DNA of 64,000 nt from Alphaproteobacteria bacterium. GTDB lineage: Bacteria; Pseudomonadota; Alphaproteobacteria; UBA828. The translations under genes and the position numbers were made by a program. The notes under the pieces are model-generated. The model ran no database searches. It was given only the letters and a program-made list of their open reading frames with translations, and was not told the DNA's origin. The stretch is from positions 1 to 64,000 of the forward strand of contig CAXXVO010000007.1 of NCBI GenBank assembly GCA_963422645.2, given 5' to 3'. Positions 2 to 45,803 of the stretch are shown here, in pieces; position 1 is the first letter of the stretch, and the number at the start of each line of letters is the position of its first letter.

Positions 2-1060
2 CCGGACCTGACCGCCGAGCATCCCGGCCAGCCGGCGCTCACCCTGGTCTTCGACCGCGAGGGCTGGAGCCCGGATCTGTTCCGCCGGCTGGCGAGGCGC
101 GGCGTCGCCTGCCTGACCTGGCACAAGAACTTCAGGGGCGAGGACTGGCCGGCCGAGGACTTCGGCGCGATGACCGTTCCCATTCACGGACCGGCGGCGG
201 ACGGCAGCGCCACCATGCGGCTGGCTGAGAAGCCGGTGACGTTGCCGAACGGCTTCAGGGTGCGCCAGATCCGCCGCCTGCTCGACAACGGCCGTCAGGT
301 GCCGCTGATCACCACCGATCCGCACAAGCCGATGGCTGAGGTTGCGGGCGCCATGTTCTCGCGCTGGTCGCAGGAGAACTTCTTCAAGTACATGCGTGAC
401 GAGTTCAATCTCGACGCCCTGCCGACCCACGAGCTCGAGCCTCTCGATCCCGCCGCCATGGTCGTCAACCCGCTGCGGCGGGCCTATGACAAGGCAATCC
501 ATCGCCTCGACCGCCAGCTTGGCCGCCTGCGCAACCGCATCGCCGACACGGCCCGGAAGAAGCAGCCGACGGCGGAACTCAGGAGGGAAGTCAGGGACCT
601 CCAGGATGTCCGCGACATCGTCAGGGCCAGCCGCAGGGAGACGCCCAAGCACTGCCGGGCCGGCGACCTCGACGAAGCCGAGCAGCTCGATGCCTTGCCC
701 GCGCGCGAGCGCCTCCTCCTCGACGTCATCCGGATGATCGCCTACCGCGCCGAAACCCGCATGATGCTTCCCGTCATGCAGGCGCAGGGCCACAAGCCCC
801 ATCCCCGGAAACTGCTTCAAGCGCTGCTCACCGCCGATGCCGACATCCTGCCGGATCCTGGCAATGGCCTCCTGCGGGTCCACATTCTTGGCCTCGCAAA
901 CGACGCCTGCGACCGTTGGATCGATGCGGTTCTGAGCGACCTGAACGCCACCGAAACGGTCTTCCCCGGCACCCGTCTGCGCATAGTCTACGACATCGAC
1001 GGGGCCTCGGAATCCGCGCGGCTCGTGTCACCTAAAATCAGCAGAGGTCAGGAAGTCTGA
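2..1060 (+). mobile_element. Putative DDE-type transposase, 5'-truncated by the window edge; the element's right end is probably at about 1060
   Basis: Frame is open from position 2 (LTLVFDREGWSPDLF...RWSQENFFKYMR...). The stop falls in GGTCAGGAAGTCTGA, which abuts a truncated copy of another IS. Family not assigned. Confidence 0.7.
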
Positions 1061-1434
1061 GGTTCTCTCGCCTATGGGTTGCACTCTCGCATGAGAGGAG
1101 CAGCCGGTGGGGTATTTCGGGTCGAAGGCGACGACCGGTCTGAGCCAGGCGCTGATTGCGCTGATGCCGCGGCACTCTGTCTATATCGAGAGCCATCTTG
1201 GGGGCGGGGCGCTGATGAAGCGCAAGCCTGCGGCCATGCGCTCGATCGGGATCGACCGCGACGAGCGGGCGCTTGAGGCCTTTGGCTGCGACTACCCGGT
1301 GGAGTTGGTGCACGGCTGCGCCCATTCCTTCCTGGCCTCGTTCCCGTTTCTGGGCCCGGAGCTGGTCTACAGCGATCCGCCCTATCTGCACGCGACCCGG
1401 CGTTCGTCGCAGCGCTACCGCTTCGAGTACGAGG
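1060..1434 (+). pseudogene. Truncated fragment of the methyltransferase-carrying IS66 element (5' half of the Dam-like MTase, GTG at 1107)
   Basis: Near-identical to the stretch starting at 39751. The match stops after ...RYRFEYE. The left IR and the -35 box are missing. Confidence 0.9.
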
Positions 1435-13046: not shown

Positions 13047-13173
13047 CCCAAGGCTTGGAGTAACTGCCCAGGTCGTCTGATTTGTCATTTTGGGCCAGTG
13101 GATTGAGGCGTTTCTCGTTCGGAGTTGGTGGAAAGGGCTTGACGGGAATTTCGGGAAATGACTCAACAACGAC

Positions 13174-14670
13174 ATGAGCAATCCCGAGTCGCCGCGCGGC
13201 CCTTCGACGGGAGCAGCGCCCGAAACGCCCGCGCAGAAGATCGCCCGCCTGGAGGAGGAGAACGCCCGGCTTCGGGAGGAAAATGCCTGGCTTCGGCAGC
13301 AGAACGCGCGGCTGGAAGAGCAAGTCGCGCGTCTCGTCGAGCGCATCGAGGAGTTGGAGCGCCGTCTCGGCCTCAACAGCGGCAAGCCGCCTTCGAGCGA
13401 TGGGCTGAGGAAGCCGAATTCGAAGCGGCGAACCCGAAGCCTGCGCGGCAAATCGGGCCGCAAGCCCGGTGGCCAGCCCGGCCACAAGGGCAAGACGCTG
13501 CGCCGCGCCGATCACCCGGATCGGGTGAAGGATCACGTCCCGGCTTCCTGCAAGGGATGCGGTTCGCCGCTTTCGGACGCGGCCAGGGCGGGAACGCCCG
13601 TCGCCCGCCAGGTGTTCGATCTGCCCGAGCCGAGCCCCCTGGAGGTGACCGAGCACCGGGCGCATGCCAAGTGCTGCGGGCATTGCGGGACGGTGACCCG
13701 GGCGGCGTTCCCCGACGGGGTGTCGGCGCCGGTGCAGTACGGCCCGCGCATTGCCGGGGTGGCGGTCTACCTTCAGCACGCTCACTTCCTGCCGGAGGAT
13801 CGGCTGTCGCAGGTGATGGCCGAGCTCTTCGGCGCGCCGGTGACGGCTGCGACGTTGGCGACGATGAGCGAGAGGGCGGCCGAGCGGCTGCGGGACGCGG
13901 CCTTGCACATACAGGACCTGGCGGCGGGCACGGCGCGGGTGAAACACATGGACGAGACCGGCTTGCGGATCGGCGGTCAGACGCAGTGGCTTCATGTGAT
14001 CTGCACGCCGCTGCTGGCGGCGTACCGGGTCAGCGGCAAGCGCGGCGCCCTGCTCTCGGGTGTCTCCGGCATCGTCGTGCACGATCACTGGAAGCCGTAC
14101 TTCGCGATGGAAGGGGTGGAGCACGGCCTGTGCAACGCCCATCACCTGCGGGAGTTGCAGGCGCTGGTGGACATCGAAGGGGAGGCTTGGGCCCGGCGGA
14201 TGCAGCAGCTCCTGCGCCGAGCCAATCGCGCCGCCCGCATCGCGCTGGACAAGGATATCGCCGTTCCGGCGAGGCTTGTGGCGCTGATCGAGCGCCGATA
14301 CGACGAGATCATCGCCGATGCGCTGGCCTTTCACGAGAGCCAACCACCGTTCTCGCCTGGCAAGAGGAAGAAGCGCCGGAAGCGAAGGATCGGTCACAAT
14401 CTGGCCTTGAGGCTGCGCGACCACAAATGCGCGGTGCTCCGGTTCCTGATCGACCTCGAGGTCGGGTTCACGAACAACGAGGCCGAGCGCGACCTTCGGA
14501 TGATGAAGCTGCGCCAGAAGATCTCCGGGGGCTTCCGGTCCGCGCAGGGGGCCGAGAACTTCGCCATCCTGCGCAGCGTCATCACCACCGCCAGAAAGCA
14601 GGGCTGGAATATCATCGAAGCCCTGACCAGCCCATCGGATCGGCTCATCGCCACCGTCAAGTGCGCGTAA
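13174..14670 (+). CDS. IS66 family transposase (TnpC-like), copy A1
   Basis: Coiled coil, KPPSSDG, GGQPGHKG, CxxC zinc motifs, HMDETG, HDHW, CNAHHLREL, TNNEAERDLR. Confidence 0.95.
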   Translation: MSNPESPRGPSTGAAPETPAQKIARLEEENARLREENAWLRQQNARLEEQVARLVERIEELERRLGLNSGKPPSSDGLRKPNSKRRTRSLRGKSGRKPGGQPGHKGKTLRRADHPDRVKDHVPASCKGCGSPLSDAARAGTPVARQVFDLPEPSPLEVTEHRAHAKCCGHCGTVTRAAFPDGVSAPVQYGPRIAGVAVYLQHAHFLPEDRLSQVMAELFGAPVTAATLATMSERAAERLRDAALHIQDLAAGTARVKHMDETGLRIGGQTQWLHVICTPLLAAYRVSGKRGALLSGVSGIVVHDHWKPYFAMEGVEHGLCNAHHLRELQALVDIEGEAWARRMQQLLRRANRAARIALDKDIAVPARLVALIERRYDEIIADALAFHESQPPFSPGKRKKRRKRRIGHNLALRLRDHKCAVLRFLIDLEVGFTNNEAERDLRMMKLRQKISGGFRSAQGAENFAILRSVITTARKQGWNIIEALTSPSDRLIATVKCA

Positions 14671-15080
14671 GCTCACCTGGCACGGGTTCTCCAACAGCGG
14701 AGCCATTCTCATAAACGATCATGGTCGACGCCGTGCTGGACCACCCCATAGAATGAAAATCGGTGCCCGTCGCGCGGGCGGACTTCGGGCCACATCGGGG
14801 TAGCTTACCGGTCGCAGTCCGCAAGAGGGGCATCGTGAGCTGTGAAACCCGGCGACCACAGAGGAGCACACGGGCGTCGCGTGGGTAGCGTTGTGCCGAA
14901 TCCCAGAGAATTTTCGTAACTGCCCAGGTACCCCCTCTCTCTTATGGAACAAGCCAGTTCCTTTTGCGTCAACGCCCCCACGCCGCGGGGGTGCCTACTC
15001 TCTTGAGCGCGAGAGGATGATGAACGCCGCGTCGCGAACAAGATGAGAGGACAGCGATACTCAGGATGAGCCGGAGAAGT

Positions 15081-16621
15081 TCAGGAGCGCAGTATAGGGA
15101 TCAGCTGCATCGGTTCCGGGTGCGCCAGGATTTGCAGGATGTTCCAGCCTTGCTTTCGAGCGGTGACGATGACGCTGCGCATTCCGGCGAAGTTGCAGGC
15201 GCCTTGCAGGGAGCGGAAGCCGCCTGAGATCTTCTCATGCACTTTGTTCATACGGATGTCACGCTCCGCCTCGTTATTCGTGAACGGCGTGCGCAGGTCG
15301 GTGAGGAAGCGCAGGCAGCCCTCCTTATGCTTTTGAAGGCGGCGCGCGAGGTTGTGGCCGATGCGGCGTTTCTTTCGCCCTCGCTTTGCGATCTGGAGCG
15401 GCGGTTGGGCCTCATGGAAGGCGATGGCTTCTTCGAGGATACGGTCCCATGCCCTTGAGATGCGGGCCACCAGGGAGGCGGGGACTTGACGGTCTTTCTC
15501 ACGGGCGAAGCGGGCGGCCCTGCGCGCGCGCTGAAGCAGGCGGTGCATGCTCGCCGCCCATTCCTCCTTCTCGATGTCGATCAGGGCCTGGAGTTCGCGC
15601 AGGTGATGTGCGTTGCAGGCGCCGTGGCGGACGCCCTTGATGGTGAAGTAGGGGGCGAAGTCGTCGTGGACGAGGATGCCTTTCAGGTTCTTTTCGACAT
15701 CGCCGCGTCCCTCGCCGATGCGCAGGACGGTGAGCAACGGGGTGCACAGCACATGGAGCCAGCGGGTACGGGCGGCGATACGCAGGCCGGTCTCGTCGAG
15801 GTGCTTGACCGGCGCCTGCGTGCGGATCAGATCGGCGACATGGTCGAGGAAGCCCTCGAAGCGCTGCGCTGTGCGCCGGCCCATGGCGGCGATCGTGGCA
15901 GTGGAGATGGACACCGCGAAGATGTCGCTCATGAGTTCGGCCAGACGCTTCTCGGGCACGAACTGGGCGTACAGCAGGTAACTCACCCAAGCGGTGATGC
16001 GAGGGCCGTACTGGACCGGGGCGGTGACGCCCGGCGGGAAGGCGGCTCGTGTCAGCGTGCCGCATGCGCCGCAGAGGCAGCGATGGGCGCGGTGTTCGGT
16101 GACCTCGAGAGGCTGCGGCTCGGGTACGTCGAAGACCTGCCGACAGGCGGGCGCGCCTTGCCGCGCGCGCTCACCGAGAGCTCGACGCCACAGCCGGAAC
16201 AGGTGGAGGGGTGGTGATCGACGACACGGTCCGGGCTGTCGCTCCGCGCGAGGGTGGTTCCCTTGTGGCCGGGCTGGCCGCCACTGGGCCCGCCGGACTT
16301 TCCGCGCTGGCTTTGGGTGCGCCTCTGGGCTCCGCTTTTCTTCTTGAGCCCGTCGCTGGCGGGGGGCTTGCTGCTTGTGGTGCTGTTGAGGGCCGCGCTG
16401 CGCTCGAGTTCGGCGATGCGCTCGCGCAGGGCCGCGTTCTCCTGCTCGAGTGCGGCATTTTCCCGGGCGAGCGCGGTGGCTGATCGCAGCAGCCCCTGCC
16501 CCCATTCCCGGACGGCAACGACGACAGTGGTTGCGAGGGATGATGGCTCGAGAAGCTCCTTCAGGCAGCAGAAGGCCTCGTTACGGGCGGCGAGGTCTTC
16601 GTGCCAGTGCGACACCGTCAC
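15081..16621 (-). pseudogene. IS66 transposase of B1, frameshifted by one extra CG in the (CG)n run at 16162-16170
   Basis: GTG at 16621 (VTVSHWHED) in one frame, GAPACRQVFD onward in another. Removing 2 nt gives LSVSARQGAP, collinear with B2 LSDADRHGAP. Confidence 0.85.
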
Positions 16622-17283
16622 GTGTCTTCGGCCTCGACGGCCATCATGGCGGCGAGCACGGCGAGGCGTTCGCCCGGCGGCAAGGCCTGGTAGCGCCGGC
16701 CCCAGTTGGCTGCCTTGCGCTTGATGCGCTGGCGGTCGGTGAAGTTCCGGCCTGCGTGGCTGGCCCAATGCATCCGGTCGGGGGCGTAGTTGAACCAGAC
16801 GACCTCGGTTCGCACCAGACCCTGGGTCGTGACCTGCAGCGCCAGCCGGCGCCATCCCGCCAGCACCTCGTCATAGAGCGCCGACGGATGGCCCGAGATC
16901 ATGACCTGGCAGGGCAGAGCCTTGAGCAGCGCGAGAAGCGCGACGTGGCCGGCCTCCTCGTACTCGAAGCGGTAGCGCTGCGCCGAGCGGCGGGTCGCGT
17001 GCAGATAGGGCGGATCGCTGTAAACCAGCTCCGGGCCCAGGAACGGGAACGAGGCCAGGAAGTCATGGGCACAGCCGTGAACCAGATCGACCGGGTAGTC
17101 GCAGACGAAGGCCTCGAGCGCCTGCGCATCGCGGTCGATGCCGATCGAACGCACGGCCGGCGGCTTGCGCTTCATCAGCGCCCCGCCCCCAAGGTGGCTT
17201 TCGATGTAGACGGAGTGCGGCGGCATCAGCGCAATCAGCGCTTGGCACAGACCTGCTGTCGCCTTCGAGCCGAAATACCCCAT
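16618..17283 (-). CDS. Dam-like (D12 class) N6-adenine DNA methyltransferase, IS passenger
   Basis: YFGSK, ESHLGGG (SAM-binding), YSDPPY (catalytic); stop overlaps the transposase start (GTGA). Confidence 0.88.
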   Translation of the reverse strand: MGYFGSKATAGLCQALIALMPPHSVYIESHLGGGALMKRKPPAVRSIGIDRDAQALEAFVCDYPVDLVHGCAHDFLASFPFLGPELVYSDPPYLHATRRSAQRYRFEYEEAGHVALLALLKALPCQVMISGHPSALYDEVLAGWRRLALQVTTQGLVRTEVVWFNYAPDRMHWASHAGRNFTDRQRIKRKAANWGRRYQALPPGERLAVLAAMMAVEAEDT

Positions 17284-17311
17284 GGACCGCTCCCGTCACG
17301 CGAGAGAGCAG

Positions 17312-17340
17312 TCCATAGTCCCGCAACTCTATGAGGTCAA
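17312..17340 (-). promoter_or_regulatory. Putative sigma70 promoter of the MTase-transposase operon (TTGACC-N17-TATGGA)
   Basis: Both boxes and the spacing are conserved in B2 while the spacer sequence diverges. Confidence 0.6.
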
Positions 17341-17464
17341 GAACCAATCGCGGTGGCAGAACCAGACCGCGGCCGCCGCCATAATCACCGTCCTCAACTC
17401 AGGATTGGGGTACCTGGGTAGTTACTAATTTTCACAGCAAGAACCTGGGCAGTTACGATTTTTC

Positions 17465-19343
17465 GTAACTGCCCAGGTTCTTGCTGTGAAAATTCTCTGG
17501 GATTCGGCACAACGCTACCCACGCGACGCCCGTGTGCTCCTCTGGGGTCGCCGGGTTTCACAGCTCACGATGCCCCTCTTGCGGACTGCGACCGGTAAGC
17601 TACCCCGATGTGGCCCGAAGTCCGCCCGCGCGACGGGCACCGATTTTCATTCTATGGGGTGGTCCAGCACGGCGTCGACCATGATCGTTTATGAGAATGG
17701 CTCCGCTGTTGGAGAACCCGTGCCAGGTGAGCTTACGCGCACTTGACGGTGGCGATGAGCCGATCCGATGGGCTGGTCAGGGCTTCGATGATATTCCAGC
17801 CCTGCTTTCTGGCGGTGGTGATGACGCTGCGCAGGATGGCGAAGTTCTCGGCCCCCTGCGCGGACCGGAAGCCCCCGGAGATCTTCTGGCGCAGCTTCAT
17901 CATCCGAAGGTCGCGCTCGGCCTCGTTGTTCGTGAACCCGACCTCGAGGTCGATCAGGAACCGGAGCACCGCGCATTTGTGGTCGCGCAGCCTCAAGGCC
18001 AGATTGTGACCGATCCTTCGCTTCCGGCGCTTCTTCCTCTTGCCAGGCGAGAACGGTGGTTGGCTCTCGTGAAAGGCCAGCGCATCGGCGATGATCTCGT
18101 CGTATCGGCGCTCGATCAGCGCCACAAGCCTCGCCGGAACGGCGATATCCTTGTCCAGCGCGATGCGGGCGGCGCGATTGGCTCGGCGCAGGAGCTGCTG
18201 CATCCGCCGGGCCCAAGCCTCCCCTTCGATGTCCACCAGCGCCTGCAACTCCCGCAGGTGATGGGCGTTGCACAGGCCGTGCTCCACCCCTTCCATCGCG
18301 AAGTACGGCTTCCAGTGATCGTGCACGACGATGCCGGAGACACCCGAGAGCAGGGCGCCGCGCTTGCCGCTGACCCGGTACGCCGCCAGCAGCGGCGTGC
18401 AGATCACATGAAGCCACTGCGTCTGACCGCCGATCCGCAAGCCGGTCTCGTCCATGTGTTTCACCCGCGCCGTGCCCGCCGCCAGGTCCTGTATGTGCAA
18501 GGCCGCGTCCCGCAGCCGCTCGGCCGCCCTCTCGCTCATCGTCGCCAACGTCGCAGCCGTCACCGGCGCGCCGAAGAGCTCGGCCATCACCTGCGACAGC
18601 CGATCCTCCGGCAGGAAGTGAGCGTGCTGAAGGTAGACCGCCACCCCGGCAATGCGCGGGCCGTACTGCACCGGCGCCGACACCCCGTCGGGGAACGCCG
18701 CCCGGGTCATCGTCCCGCAATGCCCGCAGCACTTGGCATGCGCCCGGTGCTCGGTCACCTCCAGGGGGCTCGGCTCGGGCAGATCGAACACCTGGCGGGC
18801 GACGGGCGTTCCCGCCCTGGCCGCGTCCGAAAGCGGCGAACCGCATCCCTTGCAGGAAGCCGGGACGTGATCCTTCACCCGATCCGGGTGATCGGCGCGG
18901 CGCAGCGTCTTGCCCTTGTGGCCGGGCTGGCCACCGGGCTTGCGGCCCGATTTGCCGCGCAGGCTTCGGGTTCGCCGCTTCGAATTCGGCTTCCTCAGCC
19001 CATCGCTCGAAGGCGGCTTGCCGCTGTTGAGGCCGAGACGGCGCTCCAACTCCTCGATGCGCTCGACGAGACGCGCGACTTGCTCTTCCAGCCGCGCGTT
19101 CTGCTGCCGAAGCCAGGCATTTTCCTCCCGAAGCCGGGCGTTCTCCTCCTCCAGGCGGGCGATCTTCTGCGCGGGCGTTTCGGGCGCTGCTCCCGTCGAA
19201 GGGCCGCGCGGCGACTCGGGATTGCTCATGTCGTTGTTGAGTCATTTCCCGAAATTCCCGTCAAGCCCTTTCCACCAACTCCGAACGAGAAACGCCTCAA
19301 TCCACTGGCCCAAAATGACAAATCAGACGACCTGGGCAGTTAC
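17465..19343 (-). mobile_element. IS66 element A, copy 2 (transposase 17733-19229)
   Basis: Near-identical to A1 and inverted; 8 bp from the A1 right end; flanks GATTTTTC and CATTTCCA. Confidence 0.95.
17733..19229 (-). CDS. IS66 family transposase, copy A2
   Basis: 498 aa; one V>M difference from A1. Confidence 0.95.
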   Translation of the reverse strand: MSNPESPRGPSTGAAPETPAQKIARLEEENARLREENAWLRQQNARLEEQVARLVERIEELERRLGLNSGKPPSSDGLRKPNSKRRTRSLRGKSGRKPGGQPGHKGKTLRRADHPDRVKDHVPASCKGCGSPLSDAARAGTPVARQVFDLPEPSPLEVTEHRAHAKCCGHCGTMTRAAFPDGVSAPVQYGPRIAGVAVYLQHAHFLPEDRLSQVMAELFGAPVTAATLATMSERAAERLRDAALHIQDLAAGTARVKHMDETGLRIGGQTQWLHVICTPLLAAYRVSGKRGALLSGVSGIVVHDHWKPYFAMEGVEHGLCNAHHLRELQALVDIEGEAWARRMQQLLRRANRAARIALDKDIAVPARLVALIERRYDEIIADALAFHESQPPFSPGKRKKRRKRRIGHNLALRLRDHKCAVLRFLIDLEVGFTNNEAERDLRMMKLRQKISGGFRSAQGAENFAILRSVITTARKQGWNIIEALTSPSDRLIATVKCA

Positions 19344-19832: not shown

Positions 19833-21720
19833 GTAACCGCCCAGGTTCTTGCTGTGAAAATTCTCTGGGATTCGGCACAACGCTACCCACGCGACGCCCG
19901 TGTGCTCCTCTGGGGTCGCCGGGTTTCACAGCTCACGATGCCCCTCTTGCGGACTGCGACCGGTAAGCTACCCCGATGTGGCCCGAAGTCCGCCCGCGCG
20001 ACGGGCACCGATTTTCATTCTATGGGGTGGTCCAGCACGGCGTCGACCATGATCGTTTATGAGAATGGCTCCGCTGTTGGAGAACCCGTGCCAGGTGAGC
20101 TTACGCGCACTTGACGGTGGCGATGAGCCGATCCGATGGGCTGGTCAGGGCTTCGATGATATTCCAGCCCTGCTTTCTGGCGGTGGTGATGACGCTGCGC
20201 AGGATGGCGAAGTTCTCGGCCCCCTGCGCGGACCGGAAGCCCCCGGAGATCTTCTGGCGCAGCTTCATCATCCGAAGGTCGCGCTCGGCCTCGTTGTTCG
20301 TGAACCCGACCTCGAGGTCGATCAGGAACCGGAGCACCGCGCATTTGTGGTCGCGCAGCCTCAAGGCCAGATTGTGACCGATCCTTCGCTTCCGGCGCTT
20401 CTTCCTCTTGCCAGGCGAGAACGGTGGTTGGCTCTCGTGAAAGGCCAGCGCATCGGCGATGATCTCGTCGTATCGGCGCTCGATCAGCGCCACAAGCCTC
20501 GCCGGAACGGCGATATCCTTGTCCAGCGCGATGCGGGCGGCGCGATTGGCTCGGCGCAGGAGCTGCTGCATCCGCCGGGCCCAAGCCTCCCCTTCGATGT
20601 CCACCAGCGCCTGCAACTCCCGCAGGTGATGGGCGTTGCACAGGCCGTGCTCCACCCCTTCCATCGCGAAGTACGGCTTCCAGTGATCGTGCACGACGAT
20701 GCCGGAGACACCCGAGAGCAGGGCGCCGCGCTTGCCGCTGACCCGGTACGCCGCCAGCAGCGGCGTGCAGATCACATGAAGCCACTGCGTCTGACCGCCG
20801 ATCCGCAAGCCGGTCTCGTCCATGTGTTTCACCCGCGCCGTGCCCGCCGCCAGGTCCTGTATGTGCAAGGCCGCGTCCCGCAGCCGCTCGGCCGCCCTCT
20901 CGCTCATCGTCGCCAACGTCGCAGCCGTCACCGGCGCGCCGAAGAGCTCGGCCATCACCTGCGACAGCCGATCCTCCGGCAGGAAGTGAGCGTGCTGAAG
21001 GTAGACCGCCACCCCGGCAATGCGCGGGCCGTACTGCACCGGCGCCGACACCCCGTCGGGGAACGCCGCCCGGGTCACCGTCCCGCAATGCCCGCAGCAC
21101 TTGGCATGCGCCCGGTGCTCGGTCACCTCCAGGGGGCTCGGCTCGGGCAGATCGAACACCTGGCGGGCGACGGGCGTTCCCGCCCTGGCCGCGTCCGAAA
21201 GCGGCGAACCGCATCCCTTGCAGGAAGCCGGGACGTGATCCTTCACCCGATCCGGGTGATCGGCGCGGCGCAGCGTCTTGCCCTTGTGGCCGGGCTGGCC
21301 ACCGGGCTTGCGGCCCGATTTGCCGCGCAGGCTTCGGGTTCGCCGCTTCGAATTCGGCTTCCTCAGCCCATCGCTCGAAGGCGGCTTGACGCTGTTGCCG
21401 CTGTTGAGGCCGAGACGGCGCTCCAACTCCTCGATGCGCTCGACGAGACGCGCGACTTGCTCTTCCAGCCGCGCGTTCTGCTGCCGAAGCCAGGCATTTT
21501 CCTCCCGAAGCCGGGCGTTCTCCTCCTCCAGGCGGGCGATCTTCTGCGCGGGCGTTTCGGGCGCTGCTCCCGTCGAAGGGCCGCGCGGCGACTCGGGATT
21601 GCTCATGTCGTTGTTGAGTCATTTCCCGAAATTCCCGTCAAGCCCTTTCCACCAACTCCGAACGAGAAACGCCTCAATCCACTGGCCCAAAATGACAAAT
21701 CAGACGACCTGGGCAGTTAC
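19833..21720 (-). mobile_element. IS66 element A, copy 3 (transposase 20101-21606)
   Basis: IRR variant GTAACCGCCCAGG; flanks GTCTAAAC and CTTTCTAG do not match. Confidence 0.95.
20101..21606 (-). CDS. IS66 family transposase, copy A3
   Basis: 501 aa, NSGNSVKPP variant. Confidence 0.95.
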   Translation of the reverse strand: MSNPESPRGPSTGAAPETPAQKIARLEEENARLREENAWLRQQNARLEEQVARLVERIEELERRLGLNSGNSVKPPSSDGLRKPNSKRRTRSLRGKSGRKPGGQPGHKGKTLRRADHPDRVKDHVPASCKGCGSPLSDAARAGTPVARQVFDLPEPSPLEVTEHRAHAKCCGHCGTVTRAAFPDGVSAPVQYGPRIAGVAVYLQHAHFLPEDRLSQVMAELFGAPVTAATLATMSERAAERLRDAALHIQDLAAGTARVKHMDETGLRIGGQTQWLHVICTPLLAAYRVSGKRGALLSGVSGIVVHDHWKPYFAMEGVEHGLCNAHHLRELQALVDIEGEAWARRMQQLLRRANRAARIALDKDIAVPARLVALIERRYDEIIADALAFHESQPPFSPGKRKKRRKRRIGHNLALRLRDHKCAVLRFLIDLEVGFTNNEAERDLRMMKLRQKISGGFRSAQGAENFAILRSVITTARKQGWNIIEALTSPSDRLIATVKCA

Positions 21721-33632: not shown

Positions 33633-35520
33633 GTAACTGCCCAGGTTCTTGCTGTGAAAATTCTCTGGGATTCGGCACAACGCTACCCACGCGACGCCCG
33701 TGTGCTCCTCTGGGGTCGCCGGGTTTCACAGCTCACGATGCCCCTCTTGCGGACTGCGACCGGTAAGCTACCCCGATGTGGCCCGAAGTCCGCCCGCGCG
33801 ACGGGCACCGATTTTCATTCTATGGGGTGGTCCAGCACGGCGTCGACCATGATCGTTTATGAGAATGGCTCCGCTGTTGGAGAACCCGTGCCAGGTGAGC
33901 TTACGCGCACTTGACGGTGGCGATGAGCCGATCCGATGGGCTGGTCAGGGCTTCGATGATATTCCAGCCCTGCTTTCTGGCGGTGGTGATGACGCTGCGC
34001 AGGATGGCGAAGTTCTCGGCCCCCTGCGCGGACCGGAAGCCCCCGGAGATCTTCTGGCGCAGCTTCATCATCCGAAGGTCGCGCTCGGCCTCGTTGTTCG
34101 TGAACCCGACCTCGAGGTCGATCAGGAACCGGAGCACCGCGCATTTGTGGTCGCGCAGCCTCAAGGCCAGATTGTGACCGATCCTTCGCTTCCGGCGCTT
34201 CTTCCTCTTGCCAGGCGAGAACGGTGGTTGGCTCTCGTGAAAGGCCAGCGCATCGGCGATGATCTCGTCGTATCGGCGCTCGATCAGCGCCACAAGCCTC
34301 GCCGGAACGGCGATATCCTTGTCCAGCGCGATGCGGGCGGCGCGATTGGCTCGGCGCAGGAGCTGCTGCATCCGCCGGGCCCAAGCCTCCCCTTCGATGT
34401 CCACCAGCGCCTGCAACTCCCGCAGGTGATGGGCGTTGCACAGGCCGTGCTCCACCCCTTCCATCGCGAAGTACGGCTTCCAGTGATCGTGCACGACGAT
34501 GCCGGAGACACCCGAGAGCAGGGCGCCGCGCTTGCCGCTGACCCGGTACGCCGCCAGCAGCGGCGTGCAGATCACATGAAGCCACTGCGTCTGACCGCCG
34601 ATCCGCAAGCCGGTCTCGTCCATGTGTTTCACCCGCGCCGTGCCCGCCGCCAGGTCCTGTATGTGCAAGGCCGCGTCCCGCAGCCGCTCGGCCGCCCTCT
34701 CGCTCATCGTCGCCAACGTCGCAGCCGTCACCGGCGCGCCGAAGAGCTCGGCCATCACCTGCGACAGCCGATCCTCCGGCAGGAAGTGAGCGTGCTGAAG
34801 GTAGACCGCCACCCCGGCAATGCGCGGGCCGTACTGCACCGGCGCCGACACCCCGTCGGGGAACGCCGCCCGGGTCACCGTCCCGCAATGCCCGCAGCAC
34901 TTGGCATGCGCCCGGTGCTCGGTCACCTCCAGGGGGCTCGGCTCGGGCAGATCGAACACCTGGCGGGCGACGGGCGTTCCCGCCCTGGCCGCGTCCGAAA
35001 GCGGCGAACCGCATCCCTTGCAGGAAGCCGGGACGTGATCCTTCACCCGATCCGGGTGATCGGCGCGGCGCAGCGTCTTGCCCTTGTGGCCGGGCTGGCC
35101 ACCGGGCTTGCGGCCCGATTTGCCGCGCAGGCTTCGGGTTCGCCGCTTCGAATTCGGCTTCCTCAGCCCATCGCTCGAAGGCGGCTTGACGCTGTTGCCG
35201 CTGTTGAGGCCGAGACGGCGCTCCAACTCCTCGATGCGCTCGACGAGACGCGCGACTTGCTCTTCCAGCCGCGCGTTCTGCTGCCGAAGCCAGGCATTTT
35301 CCTCCCGAAGCCGGGCGTTCTCCTCCTCCAGGCGGGCGATCTTCTGCGCGGGCGTTTCGGGCGCTGCTCCCGTCGAAGGGCCGCGCGGCGACTCGGGATT
35401 GCTCATGTCGTTGTTGAGTCATTTCCCGAAATTCCCGTCAAGCCCTTTCCACCAACTCCGAACGAGAAACGCCTCAATCCACTGGCCCAAAATGACAAAT
35501 CAGACGACCTGGGCAGTTAC
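33633..35520 (-). mobile_element. IS66 element A, copy 4 (transposase 33901-35406) with a perfect 8-bp target duplication
   Basis: AAATTGGC at 33625-33632 and 35521-35528. Confidence 0.97.
33901..35406 (-). CDS. IS66 family transposase, copy A4
   Basis: 501 aa, same protein as A3. Confidence 0.95.
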   Translation of the reverse strand: MSNPESPRGPSTGAAPETPAQKIARLEEENARLREENAWLRQQNARLEEQVARLVERIEELERRLGLNSGNSVKPPSSDGLRKPNSKRRTRSLRGKSGRKPGGQPGHKGKTLRRADHPDRVKDHVPASCKGCGSPLSDAARAGTPVARQVFDLPEPSPLEVTEHRAHAKCCGHCGTVTRAAFPDGVSAPVQYGPRIAGVAVYLQHAHFLPEDRLSQVMAELFGAPVTAATLATMSERAAERLRDAALHIQDLAAGTARVKHMDETGLRIGGQTQWLHVICTPLLAAYRVSGKRGALLSGVSGIVVHDHWKPYFAMEGVEHGLCNAHHLRELQALVDIEGEAWARRMQQLLRRANRAARIALDKDIAVPARLVALIERRYDEIIADALAFHESQPPFSPGKRKKRRKRRIGHNLALRLRDHKCAVLRFLIDLEVGFTNNEAERDLRMMKLRQKISGGFRSAQGAENFAILRSVITTARKQGWNIIEALTSPSDRLIATVKCA

Positions 35521-39240: not shown

Positions 39241-39740
39241 GGAGCGTTATCCATGACTGACGCCGCAGTATCCAGCGGACCGGATCTTCTCGAGCGGCTG
39301 GCGGCAGGGCCTGTCATCTGCGCCGAGGGCTATCTGTTCGAGATCGAGCGCCGCGGCTATCTCTCCGCAGGCGCCTACGTGCCGGAGGCGGTTCTCGACC
39401 ACCCGGAGGTCGTGGCCCAATTGCACCGCGATTTTCTGCACGCGGGCTCCGACGTCATGCTGGCCTTCACCTACTACGCCCATCGCGAGAAGCTGCGGGT
39501 GATCGGCAGGGAGGACACGCTCGAGGAGATGAACCGCACGGCGCTCCGCCTGGCGCGGGAGGCGGCGCAGGGGAGCGACGCGCTGGTCGCCGGCAATGTG
39601 TCCAACTCCAGCATTTACGTAACTGCCCAGGTCGTCTGATTTGTCGTAACTACCCAGGTACCCCGCCGCCAGTTCTGAGTGCGTGCTGATGTTGCTTGCC
39701 GTCGGTGCCGTTTCGCCGTCGGCGCGTCGTTGATCCCCGC

Positions 39741-39769
39741 TTGACTGTATAGGTTCTCTCGCCTATGGG
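39741..39769 (+). promoter_or_regulatory. Putative sigma70 promoter of the MTase-transposase operon (TTGACT-N17-TATGGG)
   Basis: Conserved with the B1 promoter. Confidence 0.6.
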
Positions 39770-39797
39770 TTGCACTCTCGCATGAGAGGAGCAGCCG

Positions 39798-40466
39798 GTG
39801 GGGTATTTCGGGTCGAAGGCGACGACCGGTCTGAGCCAGGCGCTGATTGCGCTGATGCCGCCGCACTCTGTCTATATCGAGAGCCATCTTGGGGGCGGGG
39901 CGCTGATGAAGCGCAAGCCTGCGGCCATGCGCTCGATCGGGATCGACCGCGACGAGCGGGCGCTTGAGGCCTTTGGCTGCGACTACCCGGTGGAGTTGGT
40001 GCCCGGCTGCGCCCATTCCTTCCTGGCCTCGTTCCCGTTTCTGGGCCCGGAGCTGGTCTACAGCGATCCGCCCTATCTGCACGCGACCCGGCGTTCGTCG
40101 CAGCGCTACCGCTTCGAGTACGAGGAGGCCGACCACGTCGCGCTCCTCGAACTGCTCAAGGGTCTGCCCTGCCAGGTGATGGTCTCGGGCCACCCGTCTG
40201 CGCTCTATGACGAGCTGCTGGCGGGCTGGCGCCGGCTGGCGCTGCAGGTGACGACCCAGGCCCAGGTGCGGACCGAGGTCGTGTGGTTCAACTTCGCGCC
40301 TGACCGGGTGCACTGGGCGAGCTTCGCCGGCCGGAACTTCACCGAGCGCCAGTGCATCAAGCGCAAGGCGGCCAACTGGGGCCGGCGCTACGAGGCCATG
40401 CCGGCGGGCGAACGCCTGGCGGTGCTGGCCGCGATCATGGCCGTCGAGGCCGACGAGGGTTCGTGA
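39798..40466 (+). CDS. Dam-like N6-adenine DNA methyltransferase, IS passenger
   Basis: YFGSK, ESHLGGG, DPPY; GTGA overlap with the transposase. Confidence 0.88.
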   Translation: MGYFGSKATTGLSQALIALMPPHSVYIESHLGGGALMKRKPAAMRSIGIDRDERALEAFGCDYPVELVPGCAHSFLASFPFLGPELVYSDPPYLHATRRSSQRYRFEYEEADHVALLELLKGLPCQVMVSGHPSALYDELLAGWRRLALQVTTQAQVRTEVVWFNFAPDRVHWASFAGRNFTERQCIKRKAANWGRRYEAMPAGERLAVLAAIMAVEADEGS

Positions 40467-42004
40467 CAGTGTCGCGCTGGCACGAGGACCTCGCTGCCCA
40501 CGACGAGGCCTTCGCGTGCCTGCAGGACCTTTTCACCCCACAATCCTTCGCAATGACCGCCGTCAAAGCCATTCGGGAATGGGGCCAGAGGTTGCTGCGC
40601 CTGAGCGCGGCCCTGGTCAAGGAGAACGACGCGCTGGAGCGGGAGAACGCCCGCTTGCGCGAGCGGATCGCCGAACTCGAGCGCAGCGCCGCGCTCGACA
40701 GCACCACCAGCTCCAAGCCGCCGGCCAGCGACGGTCTGAAGAAGAAGAGCGGTGACCGGGAGAAGCGCACCCGGAGCCAGCGCGGCAAGTCCGACAGGCC
40801 CAGTGGCGGCCAGCCGGGCCACAAGGGAACTACCCTGGAGCGGACCGCGACGCCCGACCATGTCGTCGATCATGATCCGTCCGCCTGTGAGGGCTGCGGC
40901 GCGCCGCTGTCGGACGCTGACCGTCACGGAGCCCCCGTCTGCCGGCAGGTCTTCGATGTGCCCGAGCCGCAGCCCCTCGAGGTCACCGAACATCGCGGCC
41001 ATCGTTGCCTCTGCGCTGCCTGCGGCACCGTGACGACAGCCGTCTTCCCGAACGGCGTGAGCGCACCGGTCCAATACGGGCCGCGCATCACCGCGTGGGT
41101 GACCTACCTGCTGCACGCTCAGTTCATTCCCGAGAAGCGGGTCGCCGAGGTCATGAGCGACCTCTTCGCGGTCAAGCTCTCAACAGCCACCATCGTCGCC
41201 ATGGGAAGGCGCACCGCCCGGCGCTTCGAGGGCTTCCTCGATCGCCTCGCGGAGATCATCCGCACCGCAGCCCCAGTCAAACACCTCGACGAGACCGGCA
41301 TCCGCATCGCCGCCCGGACCCATTGGCTCCATGTGCTGTGCACCCCGTTGCTCACCATCCTGCGCGTCGCCACCGGGCGCAGCCACATCGACGAGAAGCT
41401 CAACGGCATCGTCATCCATGACGACTACGCCACCTACTTCGCTCTCGAGGGCGTGCGCCACGGGGCCTGCAACGCCCATCACCTGCGCGAGCTCCAAGCC
41501 CTCATCGAGATCGAGAAGGAAGACTGGGCAACGAGCACGCACCGGCTCCTCATCCGTGCCAACAGAGCCGCCCGCTTCGCCCACAAGAACGACCGCGACG
41601 TGCCCGCCTCACTGGTGGCCCGCATCTCGCGAGCCTGGGACCGCATCCTCGAACGTGCCATCGCCTCTCACGAAGAAATGCCACCGCTCCAGACCGGAAA
41701 GCGCGGACGACAAAAGCGCCGCATCGGTCACAACCTCGCCCTCCGACTCCAGAAGTACAAGGAGGGGTGCCTGCGCTTCCTCACCGATCCGCGAACCCCC
41801 TTCTCCAACAACGAGGCCGAGCGCGACCTCCGAATGGGCAAGCTGCGCCAGAAAATCTCAGGCGGCTTCCGCTCGATACAAGGCGCCCGCGACTTCGCAA
41901 ACCTGCGATCCGTCATCGCCACCGCTCGAAAACAGCGCTGGAATGTCCTCGAAACCCTGGCGCACCCCGATCCAATCCAGCTGATCCCCGTATTGCGCTT
42001 CTGA
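40463..42004 (+). CDS. IS66 family transposase of B2 (intact)
   Basis: KPPASDG, GGQPGHKG, HLDETG, HDDY, CNAHHLREL, SNNEAERDLR. Confidence 0.93.
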   Translation: MTVSRWHEDLAAHDEAFACLQDLFTPQSFAMTAVKAIREWGQRLLRLSAALVKENDALERENARLRERIAELERSAALDSTTSSKPPASDGLKKKSGDREKRTRSQRGKSDRPSGGQPGHKGTTLERTATPDHVVDHDPSACEGCGAPLSDADRHGAPVCRQVFDVPEPQPLEVTEHRGHRCLCAACGTVTTAVFPNGVSAPVQYGPRITAWVTYLLHAQFIPEKRVAEVMSDLFAVKLSTATIVAMGRRTARRFEGFLDRLAEIIRTAAPVKHLDETGIRIAARTHWLHVLCTPLLTILRVATGRSHIDEKLNGIVIHDDYATYFALEGVRHGACNAHHLRELQALIEIEKEDWATSTHRLLIRANRAARFAHKNDRDVPASLVARISRAWDRILERAIASHEEMPPLQTGKRGRQKRRIGHNLALRLQKYKEGCLRFLTDPRTPFSNNEAERDLRMGKLRQKISGGFRSIQGARDFANLRSVIATARKQRWNVLETLAHPDPIQLIPVLRF

Positions 42005-42201
42005 AATCCTGCGCTGCTCCGGGAAAGCGCCGCCTGACCCCTGGCTGGTCAGAACCATCAATCCATCACGTCCGAGTGCTCGGCAGAATCAGACCTGGGC
42101 AGTTACGATTTGTCATTTTGGGCCAGTGGATTGAGGCGTTTCTCGTTCGGAGTTGGTGGAAAGGGCTTGACGGGAATTTCGGGAAATGACTCAACAACGA
42201 C

Positions 42202-43707
42202 ATGAGCAATCCCGAGTCGCCGCGCGGCCCTTCGACGGGAGCAGCGCCCGAAACGCCCGCGCAGAAGATCGCCCGCCTGGAGGAGGAGAACGCCCGGCTT
42301 CGGGAGGAAAATGCCTGGCTTCGGCAGCAGAACGCGCGGCTGGAAGAGCAAGTCGCGCGTCTCGTCGAGCGCATCGAGGAGTTGGAGCGCCGTCTCGGCC
42401 TCAACAGCGGCAACAGCGGCAAGCCGCCTTCGAGCGATGGGCTGAGGAAGCCGAATTCGAAGCGGCGAACCCGAAGCCTGCGCGGCAAATCGGGCCGCAA
42501 GCCCGGTGGCCAGCCCGGCCACAAGGGCAAGACGCTGCGCCGCGCCGATCACCCGGATCGGGTGAAGGATCACGTCCCGGCTTCCTGCAAGGGATGCGGT
42601 TCGCCGCTTTCGGACGCGGCCAGGGCGGGAACGCCCGTCGCCCGCCAGGTGTTCGATCTGCCCGAGCCGAGCCCCCTGGAGGTGACCGAGCACCGGGCGC
42701 ATGCCAAGTGCTGCGGGCATTGCGGGACGGTGACCCGGGCGGCGTTCCCCGACGGGGTGTCGGCGCCGGTGCAGTACGGCCCGCGCATTGCCGGGGTGGC
42801 GGTCTACCTTCAGCACGCTCACTTCCTGCCGGAGGATCGGCTGTCGCAGGTGATGGCCGAGCTCTTCGGCGCGCCGGTGACGGCTGCGACGTTGGCGACG
42901 ATGAGCGAGAGGGCGGCCGAGCGGCTGCGGGACGCGGCCTTGCACATACAGGACCTGGCGGCGGGCACGGCGCGGGTGAAACACATGGACGAGACCGGCT
43001 TGCGGATCGGCGGTCAGACGCAGTGGCTTCATGTGATCTGCACGCCGCTGCTGGCGGCGTACCGGGTCAGCGGCAAGCGCGGCGCCCTGCTCTCGGGTGT
43101 CTCCGGCATCGTCGTGCACGATCACTGGAAGCCGTACTTCGCGATGGAAGGGGTGGAGCACGGCCTGTGCAACGCCCATCACCTGCGGGAGTTGCAGGCG
43201 CTGGTGGACATCGAAGGGGAGGCTTGGGCCCGGCGGATGCAGCAGCTCCTGCGCCGAGCCAATCGCGCCGCCCGCATCGCGCTGGACAAGGATATCGCCG
43301 TTCCGGCGAGGCTTGTGGCGCTGATCGAGCGCCGATACGACGAGATCATCGCCGATGCGCTGGCCTTTCACGAGAGCCAACCACCGTTCTCGCCTGGCAA
43401 GAGGAAGAAGCGCCGGAAGCGAAGGATCGGTCACAATCTGGCCTTGAGGCTGCGCGACCACAAATGCGCGGTGCTCCGGTTCCTGATCGACCTCGAGGTC
43501 GGGTTCACGAACAACGAGGCCGAGCGCGACCTTCGGATGATGAAGCTGCGCCAGAAGATCTCCGGGGGCTTCCGGTCCGCGCAGGGGGCCGAGAACTTCG
43601 CCATCCTGCGCAGCGTCATCACCACCGCCAGAAAGCAGGGCTGGAATATCATCGAAGCCCTGACCAGCCCATCGGATCGGCTCATCGCCACCGTCAAGTG
43701 CGCGTAA
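42202..43707 (+). CDS. IS66 family transposase, copy A5
   Basis: 501 aa, NSGNSGKPP variant. Confidence 0.95.
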   Translation: MSNPESPRGPSTGAAPETPAQKIARLEEENARLREENAWLRQQNARLEEQVARLVERIEELERRLGLNSGNSGKPPSSDGLRKPNSKRRTRSLRGKSGRKPGGQPGHKGKTLRRADHPDRVKDHVPASCKGCGSPLSDAARAGTPVARQVFDLPEPSPLEVTEHRAHAKCCGHCGTVTRAAFPDGVSAPVQYGPRIAGVAVYLQHAHFLPEDRLSQVMAELFGAPVTAATLATMSERAAERLRDAALHIQDLAAGTARVKHMDETGLRIGGQTQWLHVICTPLLAAYRVSGKRGALLSGVSGIVVHDHWKPYFAMEGVEHGLCNAHHLRELQALVDIEGEAWARRMQQLLRRANRAARIALDKDIAVPARLVALIERRYDEIIADALAFHESQPPFSPGKRKKRRKRRIGHNLALRLRDHKCAVLRFLIDLEVGFTNNEAERDLRMMKLRQKISGGFRSAQGAENFAILRSVITTARKQGWNIIEALTSPSDRLIATVKCA

Positions 43708-44749
43708 GCTCACCTGGCACGGGTTCTCCAACAGCGGAGCCATTCTCATAAACGATCATGGTCGACGCCGTGCTGGACCACCCCATAGAATGAAAATCGG
43801 TGCCCGTCGCGCGGGCGGACTTCGGGCCACATCGGGGTAGCTTACCGGTCGCAGTCCGCAAGAGGGGCATCGTGAGCTGTGAAACCCGGCGACCACAGAG
43901 GAGCACACGGGCGTCGCGTGGGTAGCGTTGTGCCGAATCCCAGAGAATTTTCACAGCAAGAACCTGGGCAGTTACACATTTACGTGGACGGCGACGCCGA
44001 GTCCGCCCGCGAGGTGCGCACGATGTTCGACGAGCAGGTGGCCTGGGCCGTCGACGAGGGCGTGGATTACATCGTCGCCGAGACCATCTCCTTCGTCGGC
44101 GAGGCCCTGCTCGCGCTTGAAGCGATCAAGGCGGCCGGCCAGACGGCAGTGATCAACCTCGCCGTCCACCGCGACCCGACCACGCGGGACGGATTGAGCC
44201 TGGCCGAGGCAGCCAAGCGCCTGGAAGACGCGGGCGCCGACGTGGTCGGGCTCAACTGCACGCGCGGCCCGGCCACCATGCTGCCGCTGCTCGGCCCCAT
44301 TCGCGAGGCGGTGAGCTGCCACGTCGCGGCGCTGCCGGTGGCCTACCGCACCACCGCCGAGCAACCCAGCTTCCAGGCCCTGGAGGATCCCGGCTGCGCC
44401 TGTCTGCCGCGGGAGCGGCCCTTCCCCACCGCGCTCGACCCCTTCACCGTCAATCGTTACGAGATCGAGAAATTCACCAGGGACGCGCAGGCGCTCGGCG
44501 TCAACTATCTCGGCGTCTGCTGCGGCGCGTCCCCCCACCACATCCGCAGCATGGCGGAGGCCCTCGGCCGGCACCCGCCGGGGAGCAGGTACTCGCCCGA
44601 CATGTCCACACACGCCTTCTACGGCACCTCGGACAAGGTCCCGTCCGAATACAAGGACTTCGCGAAGCACCTTTAGGAGGGGTCGGGCACCAGGGCTGCG
44701 GGAGACGCCGCACGCCCGCGTAACCATCGTGAACTGGGAGAACATGTCC

Positions 44750-45803
44750 ATGACTGACGCCGAAGCGTCTGGCGTATCGAGTCCTGACTTCGACGGTTGG
44801 GCCGGTCCTCTGCGCAGAGGGCTATCTGTTCGAGCTCGAGCGCAGCGGCTATGTCGCCGCCGGCCCCTATGTGCCCGAGGCAGTGCTGGAACACCCCGAT
44901 GCGGTGATCCGGCTGCACCGTGATTTCCTGCGCGCGGGCTCCGACGTGATGCTCGCTTTCACTTACTACGCACACCGGGAAAAGCTCAGGCTGATCGGCA
45001 AAGAGGGCGCACTGGAAGAGATCAACCGCACCGCGATCCGTCTTGCGCGGGAGGCGGCGCGGGAGGGCGACGCTCTGGTCGCCGGCAACGTCTGCAACTC
45101 CAACATCTACGTGGACGGCGAGACCGAGTCCGCGCGGCGGGTGCGTGCCATGTTCGACGAGCAAGTGGGCTGGGCCGTGGACGAGGGTGTGGACTTCATC
45201 GTTGCCGAAACGATCTCTTACGTCAGCGAGGCGCTGTTGGCGCTGGAGGCGATCAAGGAGGCAGGCCTGCCGGCGGTGATCAACCTCGCCATCTTCCGTG
45301 ACCCGCTGACGCGCGAAGGACTGACCCCGGCCGAGGCCTGCAAGCGCCTGGAGGATGCTGGCGCCGACGTTGTGGGACTCAACTGCGCGCGCGGCCCGGC
45401 CACCATGCTGCCCTTGCTCGGGGAAATCCGCGAAACGGTGAGCTGCCACGTCGCGGCGCTCCCGGTGGCCTACCGCACCACCGAGGACGAGCCGACCTTC
45501 CTGTCGCTCAGCGATTCCGAGTGCGTTTGCATACCGGAAGAACGCCCCTTCCCCACGGCGCTCGACCCCTTCACCTGCAACCGCTATGAGATTGCGGAAT
45601 TCACCAGAGACGCGCGGGCACTCGGCGTCAACTATCTTGGCGTCTGTTGCGGCGCGGCACCCCACCATATCCGCAGCATGGCGGAGGCGCTCGGCCGCCA
45701 GCCGCCGGCGAGCAAGTACTCGCCCGACATGACTCGGCACGCCTACTTGGGGACCGTCGACGAAATCCCGGCTGCGAACAGGTCGTTCGCCAGGTACTTG
45801 TAG
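44750..45803 (+). pseudogene. Second homocysteine S-methyltransferase paralog with an apparent 5' frameshift
   Basis: ATG 44750 (MTDA..., like the paralog) is out of frame with GPVLCAEGYLFE; that frame has a stop at 44751-44753. Confidence 0.7.

Follow-up and report, generated by a model that had tools for sequence, protein, structure and literature searches.

IS66-family insertion sequences with an upstream Dam-fold gene and a conserved promoter palindrome: a candidate portable autorepressor related to plasmid Upf31

Genes and features at the locus

Insertion sequences (IS) are usually described as a transposase between two ends, controlled by host factors or by transposase-derived inhibitors. 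Here we describe two related elements, B1 and B2, which carry one further gene, in a 64,000-nucleotide stretch of DNA (the window) from an alphaproteobacterium of the UBA828 lineage (assembly GCA_963422645.2, contig CAXXVO010000007.1, positions 1 to 64,000, forward strand). Both are IS66-family elements, in which a gene for a protein with a Dam-like methyltransferase fold, related to the plasmid protein Upf31, stands directly upstream of the transposase gene. B1 and B2 were used as blastn queries against the window's own genome (5.9 Mb, 23 contigs). The element ends set by the first-pass annotation of the window proved exact, and the layout was as it had described. The features are listed below.

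39646..42106, plus strand: B2, complete IS66-family element with an Upf31-like (Dam-fold) gene and a transposase gene; 2461 bp; 14 full-length copies with the same ends
39638..39645, no strand: target duplication GATTTGTC of B2, left copy; the target lies inside the left end of element A, and the octamer is repeated at 42107-42114
42107..42114, no strand: target duplication GATTTGTC of B2, right copy
39646..39664, plus strand: left terminal inverted repeat GTAACTACCCAGGTACCCC of B2, identical in the B1 and B2 left ends
42093..42106, minus strand: right terminal inverted repeat of B2 (GTAACTGCCCAGGT on the minus strand)
39741..39769, plus strand: promoter TTGACT-N17-TATGGG of the two-gene operon of B2, read from the sequence; relatives have TTGACA-17-TATGCT
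39748..39767, no strand: operator-like inverted repeat TATAG-N10-CTATG of B2, between the -35 and the -10, the right arm overlapping the -10
39798..40466, plus strand: gene of B2 for a 222-residue Upf31-family protein with a Dam-like (D12) fold, with motif I and DPPY and without a Dam-type target-recognition domain
40463..42004, plus strand: IS66-family transposase gene of B2, 513 residues from a GTG overlapping the upstream stop codon (GTGA)
14916..17425, minus strand: B1, second family of the same kind, 79-89% related to B2; 36 full-length copies with target duplications
17314..17333, no strand: promoter palindrome CATAG-N10-CTATG of B1
16618..17283, minus strand: Dam-fold gene of B1, Upf31-like, 221 residues, 86% identical to the B2 protein
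15081..16621, minus strand: transposase gene of B1, broken in the window copy only (2-nt insertion and substitutions at 16164-16174)
1060..1434, plus strand: B2 fragment, beginning inside the promoter palindrome where another IS ends, with the first 113 codons of the Dam-fold gene

Elements B1 and B2

B1 is 2510 bp long in the window, while most of its 36 full-length copies measure 2508 bp. Perfect 8-bp direct repeats (e.g. CCGTACCC, CTCCTAAC and GTTTCCTG) surround most of the 50 full-length B1 and B2 copies. Duplications of this kind are a hallmark of IS66. Thus the whole unit transposes, and these copies are true transposition products. In three of the four B ends the terminal repeat reads GTAACT(A/G)CCCAGGTACC (GTAACT(A/G)CCCAGGT...), and the right end of B2 reads GTAACTGCCCAGGTCTG. 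The B transposase contains the domains DDE_Tnp_IS66 (PF03050, 3.1e-38, 132 bits with a cut-off of 23.1), zf-IS66 and DUF6444, and it scores 284 bits against NF033517 (cut-off 180). An intact single transposase frame is found in 34 of 36 B1 copies and 13 of 14 B2 copies. B1 and B2 are active single-transposase insertion sequences of the IS66 family.

In each of the 50 full-length copies the Dam-fold gene is enclosed by the inverted repeats and the target duplications and has an open frame, and in both families it is joined to the transposase gene by the GTGA stop/start overlap. When the 222-residue B2 protein was searched against the genome by tblastn, 91 matches were obtained, of which about 75 were full length, two of these with a stop. 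The fragment at 1060-1434 is 99% identical to B2 39751-40125. No open reading frame other than the Dam-fold gene and the transposase was found within the B1 and B2 ends, and neither tnpA nor tnpB is among them. Thus the elements hold no restriction partner, as had been noted from the sequence at first pass, and they are placed with the single-transposase IS66 group, which we take to be the one named ISBst12-type. Features common to that group and the B elements are an IS66 DDE transposase with a zinc finger and an N-terminal coiled coil, 8-bp target duplications, GTAA... terminal repeats (the canonical IS66 end is GTAAGCG) and the lack of tnpA and tnpB, whereas the B elements add an upstream gene with its own promoter and, probably, regulation. 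In the canonical three-gene IS66 group, by contrast, tnpA and tnpB stand upstream of the transposase. The B elements fit the description of an IS with a passenger gene (presumably a 'transporter IS'), since a gene without a part in transposition lies inside the ends and moves along with them in all 50 copies. We class the finding as an IS66-family IS with an added regulatory passenger.

The combination of a frameshifted transposase with an intact methylase-like gene in B1 had been pointed out at first pass. The lesion is private to the window copy and is thus uninformative on selection; the idea of a programmed or selected frameshift was rejected on the same ground. The lesion (16164-16174) consists of the 2-nt insertion and five substitutions clustered in 11 bp, and it looks like the replacement of a small patch and not like point mutations that arose independently.

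The Dam-fold protein

Neither the B1 nor the B2 Dam-fold protein matched any Pfam family at an expectation value (E) up to 0.01. Against TIGR00571 (dam) the B2 protein reached 25.8 bits, below the cut-off of 114.85, and one relative (L077) barely reaches PF02086 (25.8 versus 22). In PHROGs, DNA methyltransferase families were matched (phrog_56 at 3.4e-20). The family is large: a word-indexed search returned 2807 proteins at E up to 0.001, the best 120 of which all have at least 69% identity, and clusters at 50% identity numbered 6029 at E up to 0.001 and 508 at 1e-30.

In a broad alignment of 38 sequences, 38-86% identical to B2, the residues G5, H23, G32, D90, P91, P92, H113, G178 and R184 are invariant. 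Toward the C-terminus, R189 and E205 are nearly invariant in the same alignment, while W194 and K188-K190 are invariant in a narrower alignment of 8 sequences. The S-adenosylmethionine (SAM)-binding motif I, GGGA, occupies residues 32-35 and the catalytic DPPY residues 90-93, which is the alpha-class order, with about 55 residues in between. The AlphaFold2 model (predicted local distance difference test score 90.7) depicts a Rossmann fold without interruption, after which come two long helices at the C-terminus (181-200 and 203-221). The top Protein Data Bank (PDB) folds in Foldseek are E. coli Dam and DpnM, with template modelling scores of about 0.5. Likewise, a profile search of PDB sequences found DpnM at 1.4e-9 in two stretches that skip DpnM residues ~73-178.

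The Rossmann fold, motif I and DPPY are thus common to the B2 protein and to E. coli Dam and DpnM (D12, PF02086, TIGR00571), whereas the helical target-recognition domain of about 90 residues, which in Dam and DpnM lies between motif III and DPPY, is missing from it. According to the model, the protein is a Dam catalytic core with a conserved basic C-terminal helical hairpin, without the Dam target-recognition domain (~90 residues).

A palindrome in the promoter

The upstream regions of the relatives align as TTGAC-N2-CATAG-N10-CTATG, the -10 being mostly TATGCT and overlapped by the right arm. For the count of this inverted repeat, 149 loci with at least 140 nt upstream were reduced to 101 unique upstream sequences, 99 of which had a -35-like anchor. 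At the fixed offset the repeat is perfect (5/5) in 55 of these 99 and at least 4/5 in 79, with a mean of 4.24 of 5 positions complementary; when the right arm was shifted by 1-3 positions as a control, only 0.35-1.6 of 5 were. Compensatory arm variants occur as well, namely CGTAG/CTACG in 5 sequences and, at the same offset, the IncP-1 form CATCG/CGATG. One-sided intermediates are found too, as CATAG/CTACG (3) and TATAG/CTACG (3). Of the 99 sequences, 93 retain the central T:A of the half-site, as do all three arm variants. At several loci the arms are lengthened to 8-9 bp, ACAGCATAG...CTATGCTGT, and take in part of the -35.

With a sigma-70 scanner, TTGACA-17-TATGCT (10 of 12) was the only plus-strand promoter-like site in two complete relatives. 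The pattern [CT]ATAG-N10-CTAT[GA] has 80 matches in the window's genome, where about 3 are expected. Of these, 79 belong to promoters of the B1 or B2 type and the remaining one is another variant, all upstream of the cassette; the same scan found no extra operator copies elsewhere in the genome. The cassette promoter is retained ahead of IS701, IS4 and ISKra4 transposases and where the gene stands alone on conjugative plasmids, and CATAG-N10-CTATG is also present upstream of a Xanthomonas MOBF plasmid gene. Judged from these alignments, the gene travels with a conserved predicted promoter and its palindrome.

It should be pointed out that two sites of action had been considered for the protein, the ends of the element and its promoter. 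The ends fared badly. GGTACC and CCAGGT had been singled out as a possible methylation target, but the ends of cassette-bearing elements are diverse (GTAACTACCCAGGT, GTAACTACTCACCC, GTAACTATTCAGGGG, GTGAGCTCAAACTG and the unrelated IS701, IS4 and ISKra4 ends) and have no common motif, GGTACC being restricted to the ends of the B clade. This target was rejected because the ends of the other methylase-bearing elements lack it and because element A, which has no such gene, has the same GTAACTGCCCAGGT ends. The idea of the promoter as the site of action survives, strengthened by the conserved palindrome.

The palindrome is also a site where another IS has entered. That family (window 2-1060, junction 1059/1060) has a Transposase_29 open reading frame and ends ...GAGGTCAGGAAGTCTG. 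In at least 9 of 118 ends, this IS or one of its short derivatives is inserted at one and the same point (TAT^AGG) within the B promoter palindrome; both orientations and differing insert lengths occur. This is either a hot spot or a single event copied afterwards.

Spread of the cassette between transposases

The pairing of the methylase-like gene with an IS66 transposase recurs widely, as had been proposed for checking. By tblastn, an IS66 transposase was placed immediately downstream in most of the best 80 genome loci. Eighty metagenome loci were examined as well, of which 68 had a downstream frame of at least 100 residues and 12 were left out (contig end or shorter frame). The families of the downstream frame in the 68 loci were as follows.

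IS66: 54
IS701: 1
IS4: 1
No family match: 12 (mostly short or truncated frames)

Three other IS families were found as partners. The IS701-type partner (L065, L066, L070, L072-L074) comes from three Paracoccaceae/Rhodobacteraceae genomes; the element is 2.78 kb long with CTCGACTTTGTACA ends and 5-bp CTNAG duplications, and its cassette, 84% identical to B2, precedes an IS701 transposase (NF049999, 309 bits). The ISKra4-type partner (L077) has 23-bp ends, an AATGACA duplication and a transposase matching NF033572 at 345 bits, and the IS4-type partner (L125) has perfect 26-bp ends. IS630 was considered as a fifth partner family at L067 and rejected: L067 and L068 retain the IS66-type left end and the first ~10 transposase codons, so they are remnants of IS66-type elements into which the IS630 gene was inserted later. 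A discrete cassette with a fixed 3' boundary was not supported either, as homology stops at varying points past the stop codon.

Among 74 non-redundant elements, transposase identity goes only loosely with that of the upstream protein. Members of the B clade match B2 at 86% or more in the upstream protein and at 75% or more in the transposase, while in all other IS66-linked elements the values are 58-73% and only 21-36%. A quick maximum-likelihood tree was built from 67 proteins, and the 63 that are linked to an IS form one clade in it (Shimodaira-Hasegawa-like approximate likelihood ratio support 95), separate from the two sampled plasmid proteins and two chromosomal proteins. The IS701-, ISKra4- and IS4-linked proteins are nested among the IS66-linked ones, the IS701 group joining the B clade with support 98. 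Going by these comparisons, the cassette has moved between transposases. A literature search, which did not extend to ISfinder or REBASE, found no description of an IS66 element or any other IS carrying this gene.

Copies 69-95% identical at the protein level were binned as Dehalococcoidia, Binatia, Tectimicrobiota, Uhrbacteria and Planctomycetota (L005, L018, L060, L078, L079/L080). Such placements mean either that horizontal transfer has reached very far or that repeated elements were put in the wrong bins of metagenome-assembled genomes.

A different neighbour was seen in two of 400 sampled genomes of the same phylum (G337 and G127). Here a Dam-fold relative of 250-268 residues is followed, with a 4-nt overlap, by a 257-residue Ogg-HhH (PF22175) glycosylase-like gene (L174 1426-2948; L175 716-2292). 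The two could be a methylase plus glycosylase pair.

Selection on the two genes

For both genes, nonsynonymous (dN) and synonymous (dS) divergence was estimated by the Nei-Gojobori method between an intact B1 copy and B2.

Dam-fold gene, 221 codons: dN 0.070, dS 0.307, dN/dS 0.227
Transposase gene, 512 codons: dN 0.153, dS 0.625, dN/dS 0.244

Both genes are under purifying selection. The comparison of the two Dam-fold genes had been suggested as a check on neutral evolution, and its outcome, together with the position of the gene inside all 50 full-length copies and its IS66 linkage in the metagenome loci, supports the reading of the gene as an integral, conserved component of the element.

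These results bear on the simplest alternative, namely that the gene is a neutral hitch-hiker which was trapped between the ends and does nothing for the element. IS elements with passenger genes form a known category, and element A, which lacks the gene, is more numerous in the same genome. A neutral gene is hard to reconcile with a dN/dS of 0.23 and an intact frame in all full-length copies. From its position the gene also appears to be translationally coupled to the transposase and to supply the only promoter. Furthermore, it has been kept across IS66 lineages with transposases 21-36% identical and has been acquired by three other IS families. We therefore regard the hitch-hiker explanation as very improbable.

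Upf31, the closest characterised relative

When 72,556 plasmid records were searched by tblastn, relatives of the B2 protein were found in 198 records at 44-54% identity, 134 of them typed conjugative, with the gene annotated as 'DNA adenine methylase'. One of these plasmid genes, upf31.0 from an IncP-1 plasmid, matches the B2 protein at 44% identity along its entire length (224 columns, E 1e-62). Upf31 of the IncP-1β plasmids pBP136 and R751 is an autorepressor: it shuts its own promoter from 4.76 to 0.09 XylE units in an assay with an R751/pBP136 hybrid Upf31, residues 173-225 are required for repression, and the protein was modelled as a homodimer (Elg et al. 2025, PMC11997246). As the likely operator its authors name a conserved IncP-1β inverted repeat, CAGCATCG, which is the CATCG/CGATG variant described above. 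Their search for homologues was confined to plasmids and turned them up almost exclusively in IncP-1β; the article uses neither the word 'transposase' nor the phrase 'insertion sequence' (PMC11997246).

Upf31 and the IS protein have in common their size (~222-225 residues), the Dam-like N-terminal body and a helical domain at the C-terminus that has a basic patch and a conserved tryptophan. Both also have an inverted-repeat promoter, the IncP arms CAGCATCG matching CAGCATAG of the IS cassettes. They differ in setting, since Upf31 is the product of a lone plasmid gene wired into the KorA/KorB circuit, whereas the IS cassette is fused to a transposase and mobile with the IS.

The same article reports that Upf31, expressed in ER2796, an E. 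coli strain free of methylases, gave no Dam-type (GATC) protection in digests and no signal in sequencing by the single-molecule real-time (SMRT) method (PMC11997246). The expression clone began about 15 nt 5' of the ATG and the strain did not carry the plasmid itself (PMC11997246). It follows that the promoter repeat was absent from the SMRT strain and that operator-only methylation would have been undetectable there. The name 'Dam-like methyltransferase', given to the IS gene product at first pass, is thus justified for the fold, motif I and DPPY, but the Dam target-recognition domain is missing and the characterised relative has no methylation detectable in the reported assays. We apply the name to fold and motifs only.

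Does the protein methylate DNA?

One possibility is that the protein is an active orphan N6-adenine DNA methyltransferase with short or relaxed specificity, which methylates host or vector DNA at large. It would then shield a ferrying plasmid or phage from restriction or reshape the methylome, and the transposase link would only ensure its spread. The invariant motif I and DPPY, the Dam-like fold and the PHROG match to DNA methyltransferases agree with this, as do the relatives on plasmids, most of them conjugative, and the very similar copies filed under several phyla. There is also a precedent in Hia5 and other Dam relatives with a divergent recognition region, which PMC3299994 describes as non-specific adenine methylases of Mu-like prophages. 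Several points tell against it, among them the lack of GATC methylation or SMRT signal reported for Upf31. The protein has no recognisable target-recognition domain, and a chromosomal IS gains nothing by protecting DNA that its host already tolerates. The placement in distant phyla relies on metagenome bins, to which repeated elements are readily assigned in error, and the promoter palindrome, conserved and with compensatory changes, would be left unexplained. Taken together, we judge an orphan methylase unlikely.

A second possibility is that the protein is a repressor that acts by methyl transfer at its own operator only, on the invariant adenine of CTATG. The promoter would be silent when fully methylated and would fire during the one generation that follows replication or single-strand transfer. 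This is the logic of IS10 and Dam in self-contained form. Host Dam control of IS10, IS50 and IS903 is alike in outline, in that an adenine-methylase-fold protein works at a site overlapping the -10 of the transposase promoter; there, however, a host-encoded methylase acts at GATC, with proven methylation, whereas in the B elements the protein is encoded by the element and the putative site is CTATG in the palindrome. The -11 adenine, the second base of the -10, is the base flipped out by sigma-70. Since the right arm overlaps the -10, the adenine of CTATG is this second base of the hexamer, and none of the three arm variants alters the central T:A of the half-site. The catalytic motifs are invariant. 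In addition, the SMRT strain of Upf31 held no operator (PMC11997246), and its reporter assay does not separate binding from methylation. On the other hand, no member of the family has been directly shown to transfer methyl groups, and a plain binding repressor covers the same data with fewer assumptions. Operator methylation is in our view quite unlikely. The same holds, as a decidedly doubtful proposal, for its wider form: a self-contained epigenetic switch in which the Dam-fold protein would methylate only the CTATG adenine of its own operator, promoter and transposition would be active solely on DNA that is unmethylated or hemimethylated (just after replication, or when a new cell is entered), and IS66, IS701, IS4, ISKra4 and conjugative plasmids would have recruited the switch independently.

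A portable autorepressor as the favoured explanation

We consider it probable, with moderate confidence, that the cassette drives and limits transposase expression as a portable autorepressor. The Dam-fold protein is the only protein common to all contexts of the palindrome and has a homologue that is a proven autorepressor, and for this reason the IS gene is read as an autorepressor. By analogy, the IS protein would repress its own promoter as Upf31 does, and this would limit transposition. Because the transposase is fused to the cassette by the stop/start overlap, both proteins would be made from the element's only promoter. As a weak hint of expression, contigs at least 85% alike from three metatranscriptome libraries (X15, X16 and X17) cover both genes of element relatives, and a 253-nt one (X16, 40363-40595) spans the junction of the Dam-fold gene and the transposase.

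The proposed circuit is as follows. The Dam-fold protein would bind the palindrome, probably as a dimer, and shut the promoter, and translational coupling to the Dam-fold gene would place transposase synthesis under the same negative feedback. Expression would be high when the element arrives in a cell without the protein, giving a burst in the naive cell; as protein from all copies accumulates, expression would fall, and repression in trans would rise with copy number. The net effect would be a copy-number-dependent self-restraint. As the B1 and B2 operators have half-sites in common, the two families probably cross-repress. Element-encoded proteins that limit transposase expression or activity in a copy-number-dependent manner are known in IS1 InsA, IS911 OrfA and the Tn5 inhibitor; these are derivatives of the transposase or of its DNA-binding domain, and the ends are where they act. 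The B protein differs from them in having a methyltransferase fold and a separate putative operator, and it is also found in plasmids and other IS families.

Several points weigh against this explanation. Autorepression was measured for Upf31, at 44% identity, and not for the IS protein, and its authors credit some of the Upf31 effect to KorB, a plasmid protein which these IS lack (PMC11997246). The invariant DPPY and SAM-binding motifs are needless for a plain repressor and point to retained catalysis. Since element A stands at 76 copies without the gene, the cassette is unnecessary for success in this host, and 50 full-length B copies arose despite the supposed feedback. A simple sigma-70 scanner called no promoter on B2, which it misses because the -10 is TATGGG. 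Finally, the metatranscriptome contigs prove neither a transcript nor its start nor an operon, DNA carry-over being possible.

The new points here are the link to Upf31, the conserved operator-promoter, the partners outside IS66 and the shuffling of the cassette between elements. If the favoured explanation is right, a large and widespread IS group carries a borrowed regulatory module, consisting of a methyltransferase-fold autorepressor with its own operator and promoter, and conjugative plasmids as well as four or more transposase families make use of this one module. Upf31, a plasmid protein characterised only recently, is tied to transposon biology. The explanation also offers a testable account of self-restraint in elements that still reach 50 or more copies, and a clean system in which to ask whether a Dam-fold protein has turned into a sequence-specific repressor or an operator-specific methylase. 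For annotation, surveys of methylomes and of defence would enter these genes, now called 'DNA adenine methylase', as orphan methylases.

Element A and other neighbours in the window

Element A is a 1888-bp IS66-family element without an upstream gene, present in 76 near-full copies in the genome and in 5 copies in the window. Its transposase is 57% identical to that of B2. A and B together span about 205 + 219 kb, or ~7% of the genome. The copies in the window are the following.

39620..39645 (left 26 bp, plus strand) and 42107-43975 (remainder): element A split by B2
13060-14947, 17465-19343, 19833-21720 and 33633-35520: further copies of element A

In the window, B1 and B2 each lie within the terminal ~30 bp of an A copy, B2 at a left end and B1 at a right end. 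As many other B copies are flanked by the left 100 bp of A, the A ends look like a preferred landing site of B. The A::B2 insertion in turn splits a gene (39253-39619 and 43976-44275), whose halves are 81-82% identical to an intact paralogue at 44794-45402, about 1 kb downstream; the split gene and its paralogue belong to the repeat families D10 and D11.

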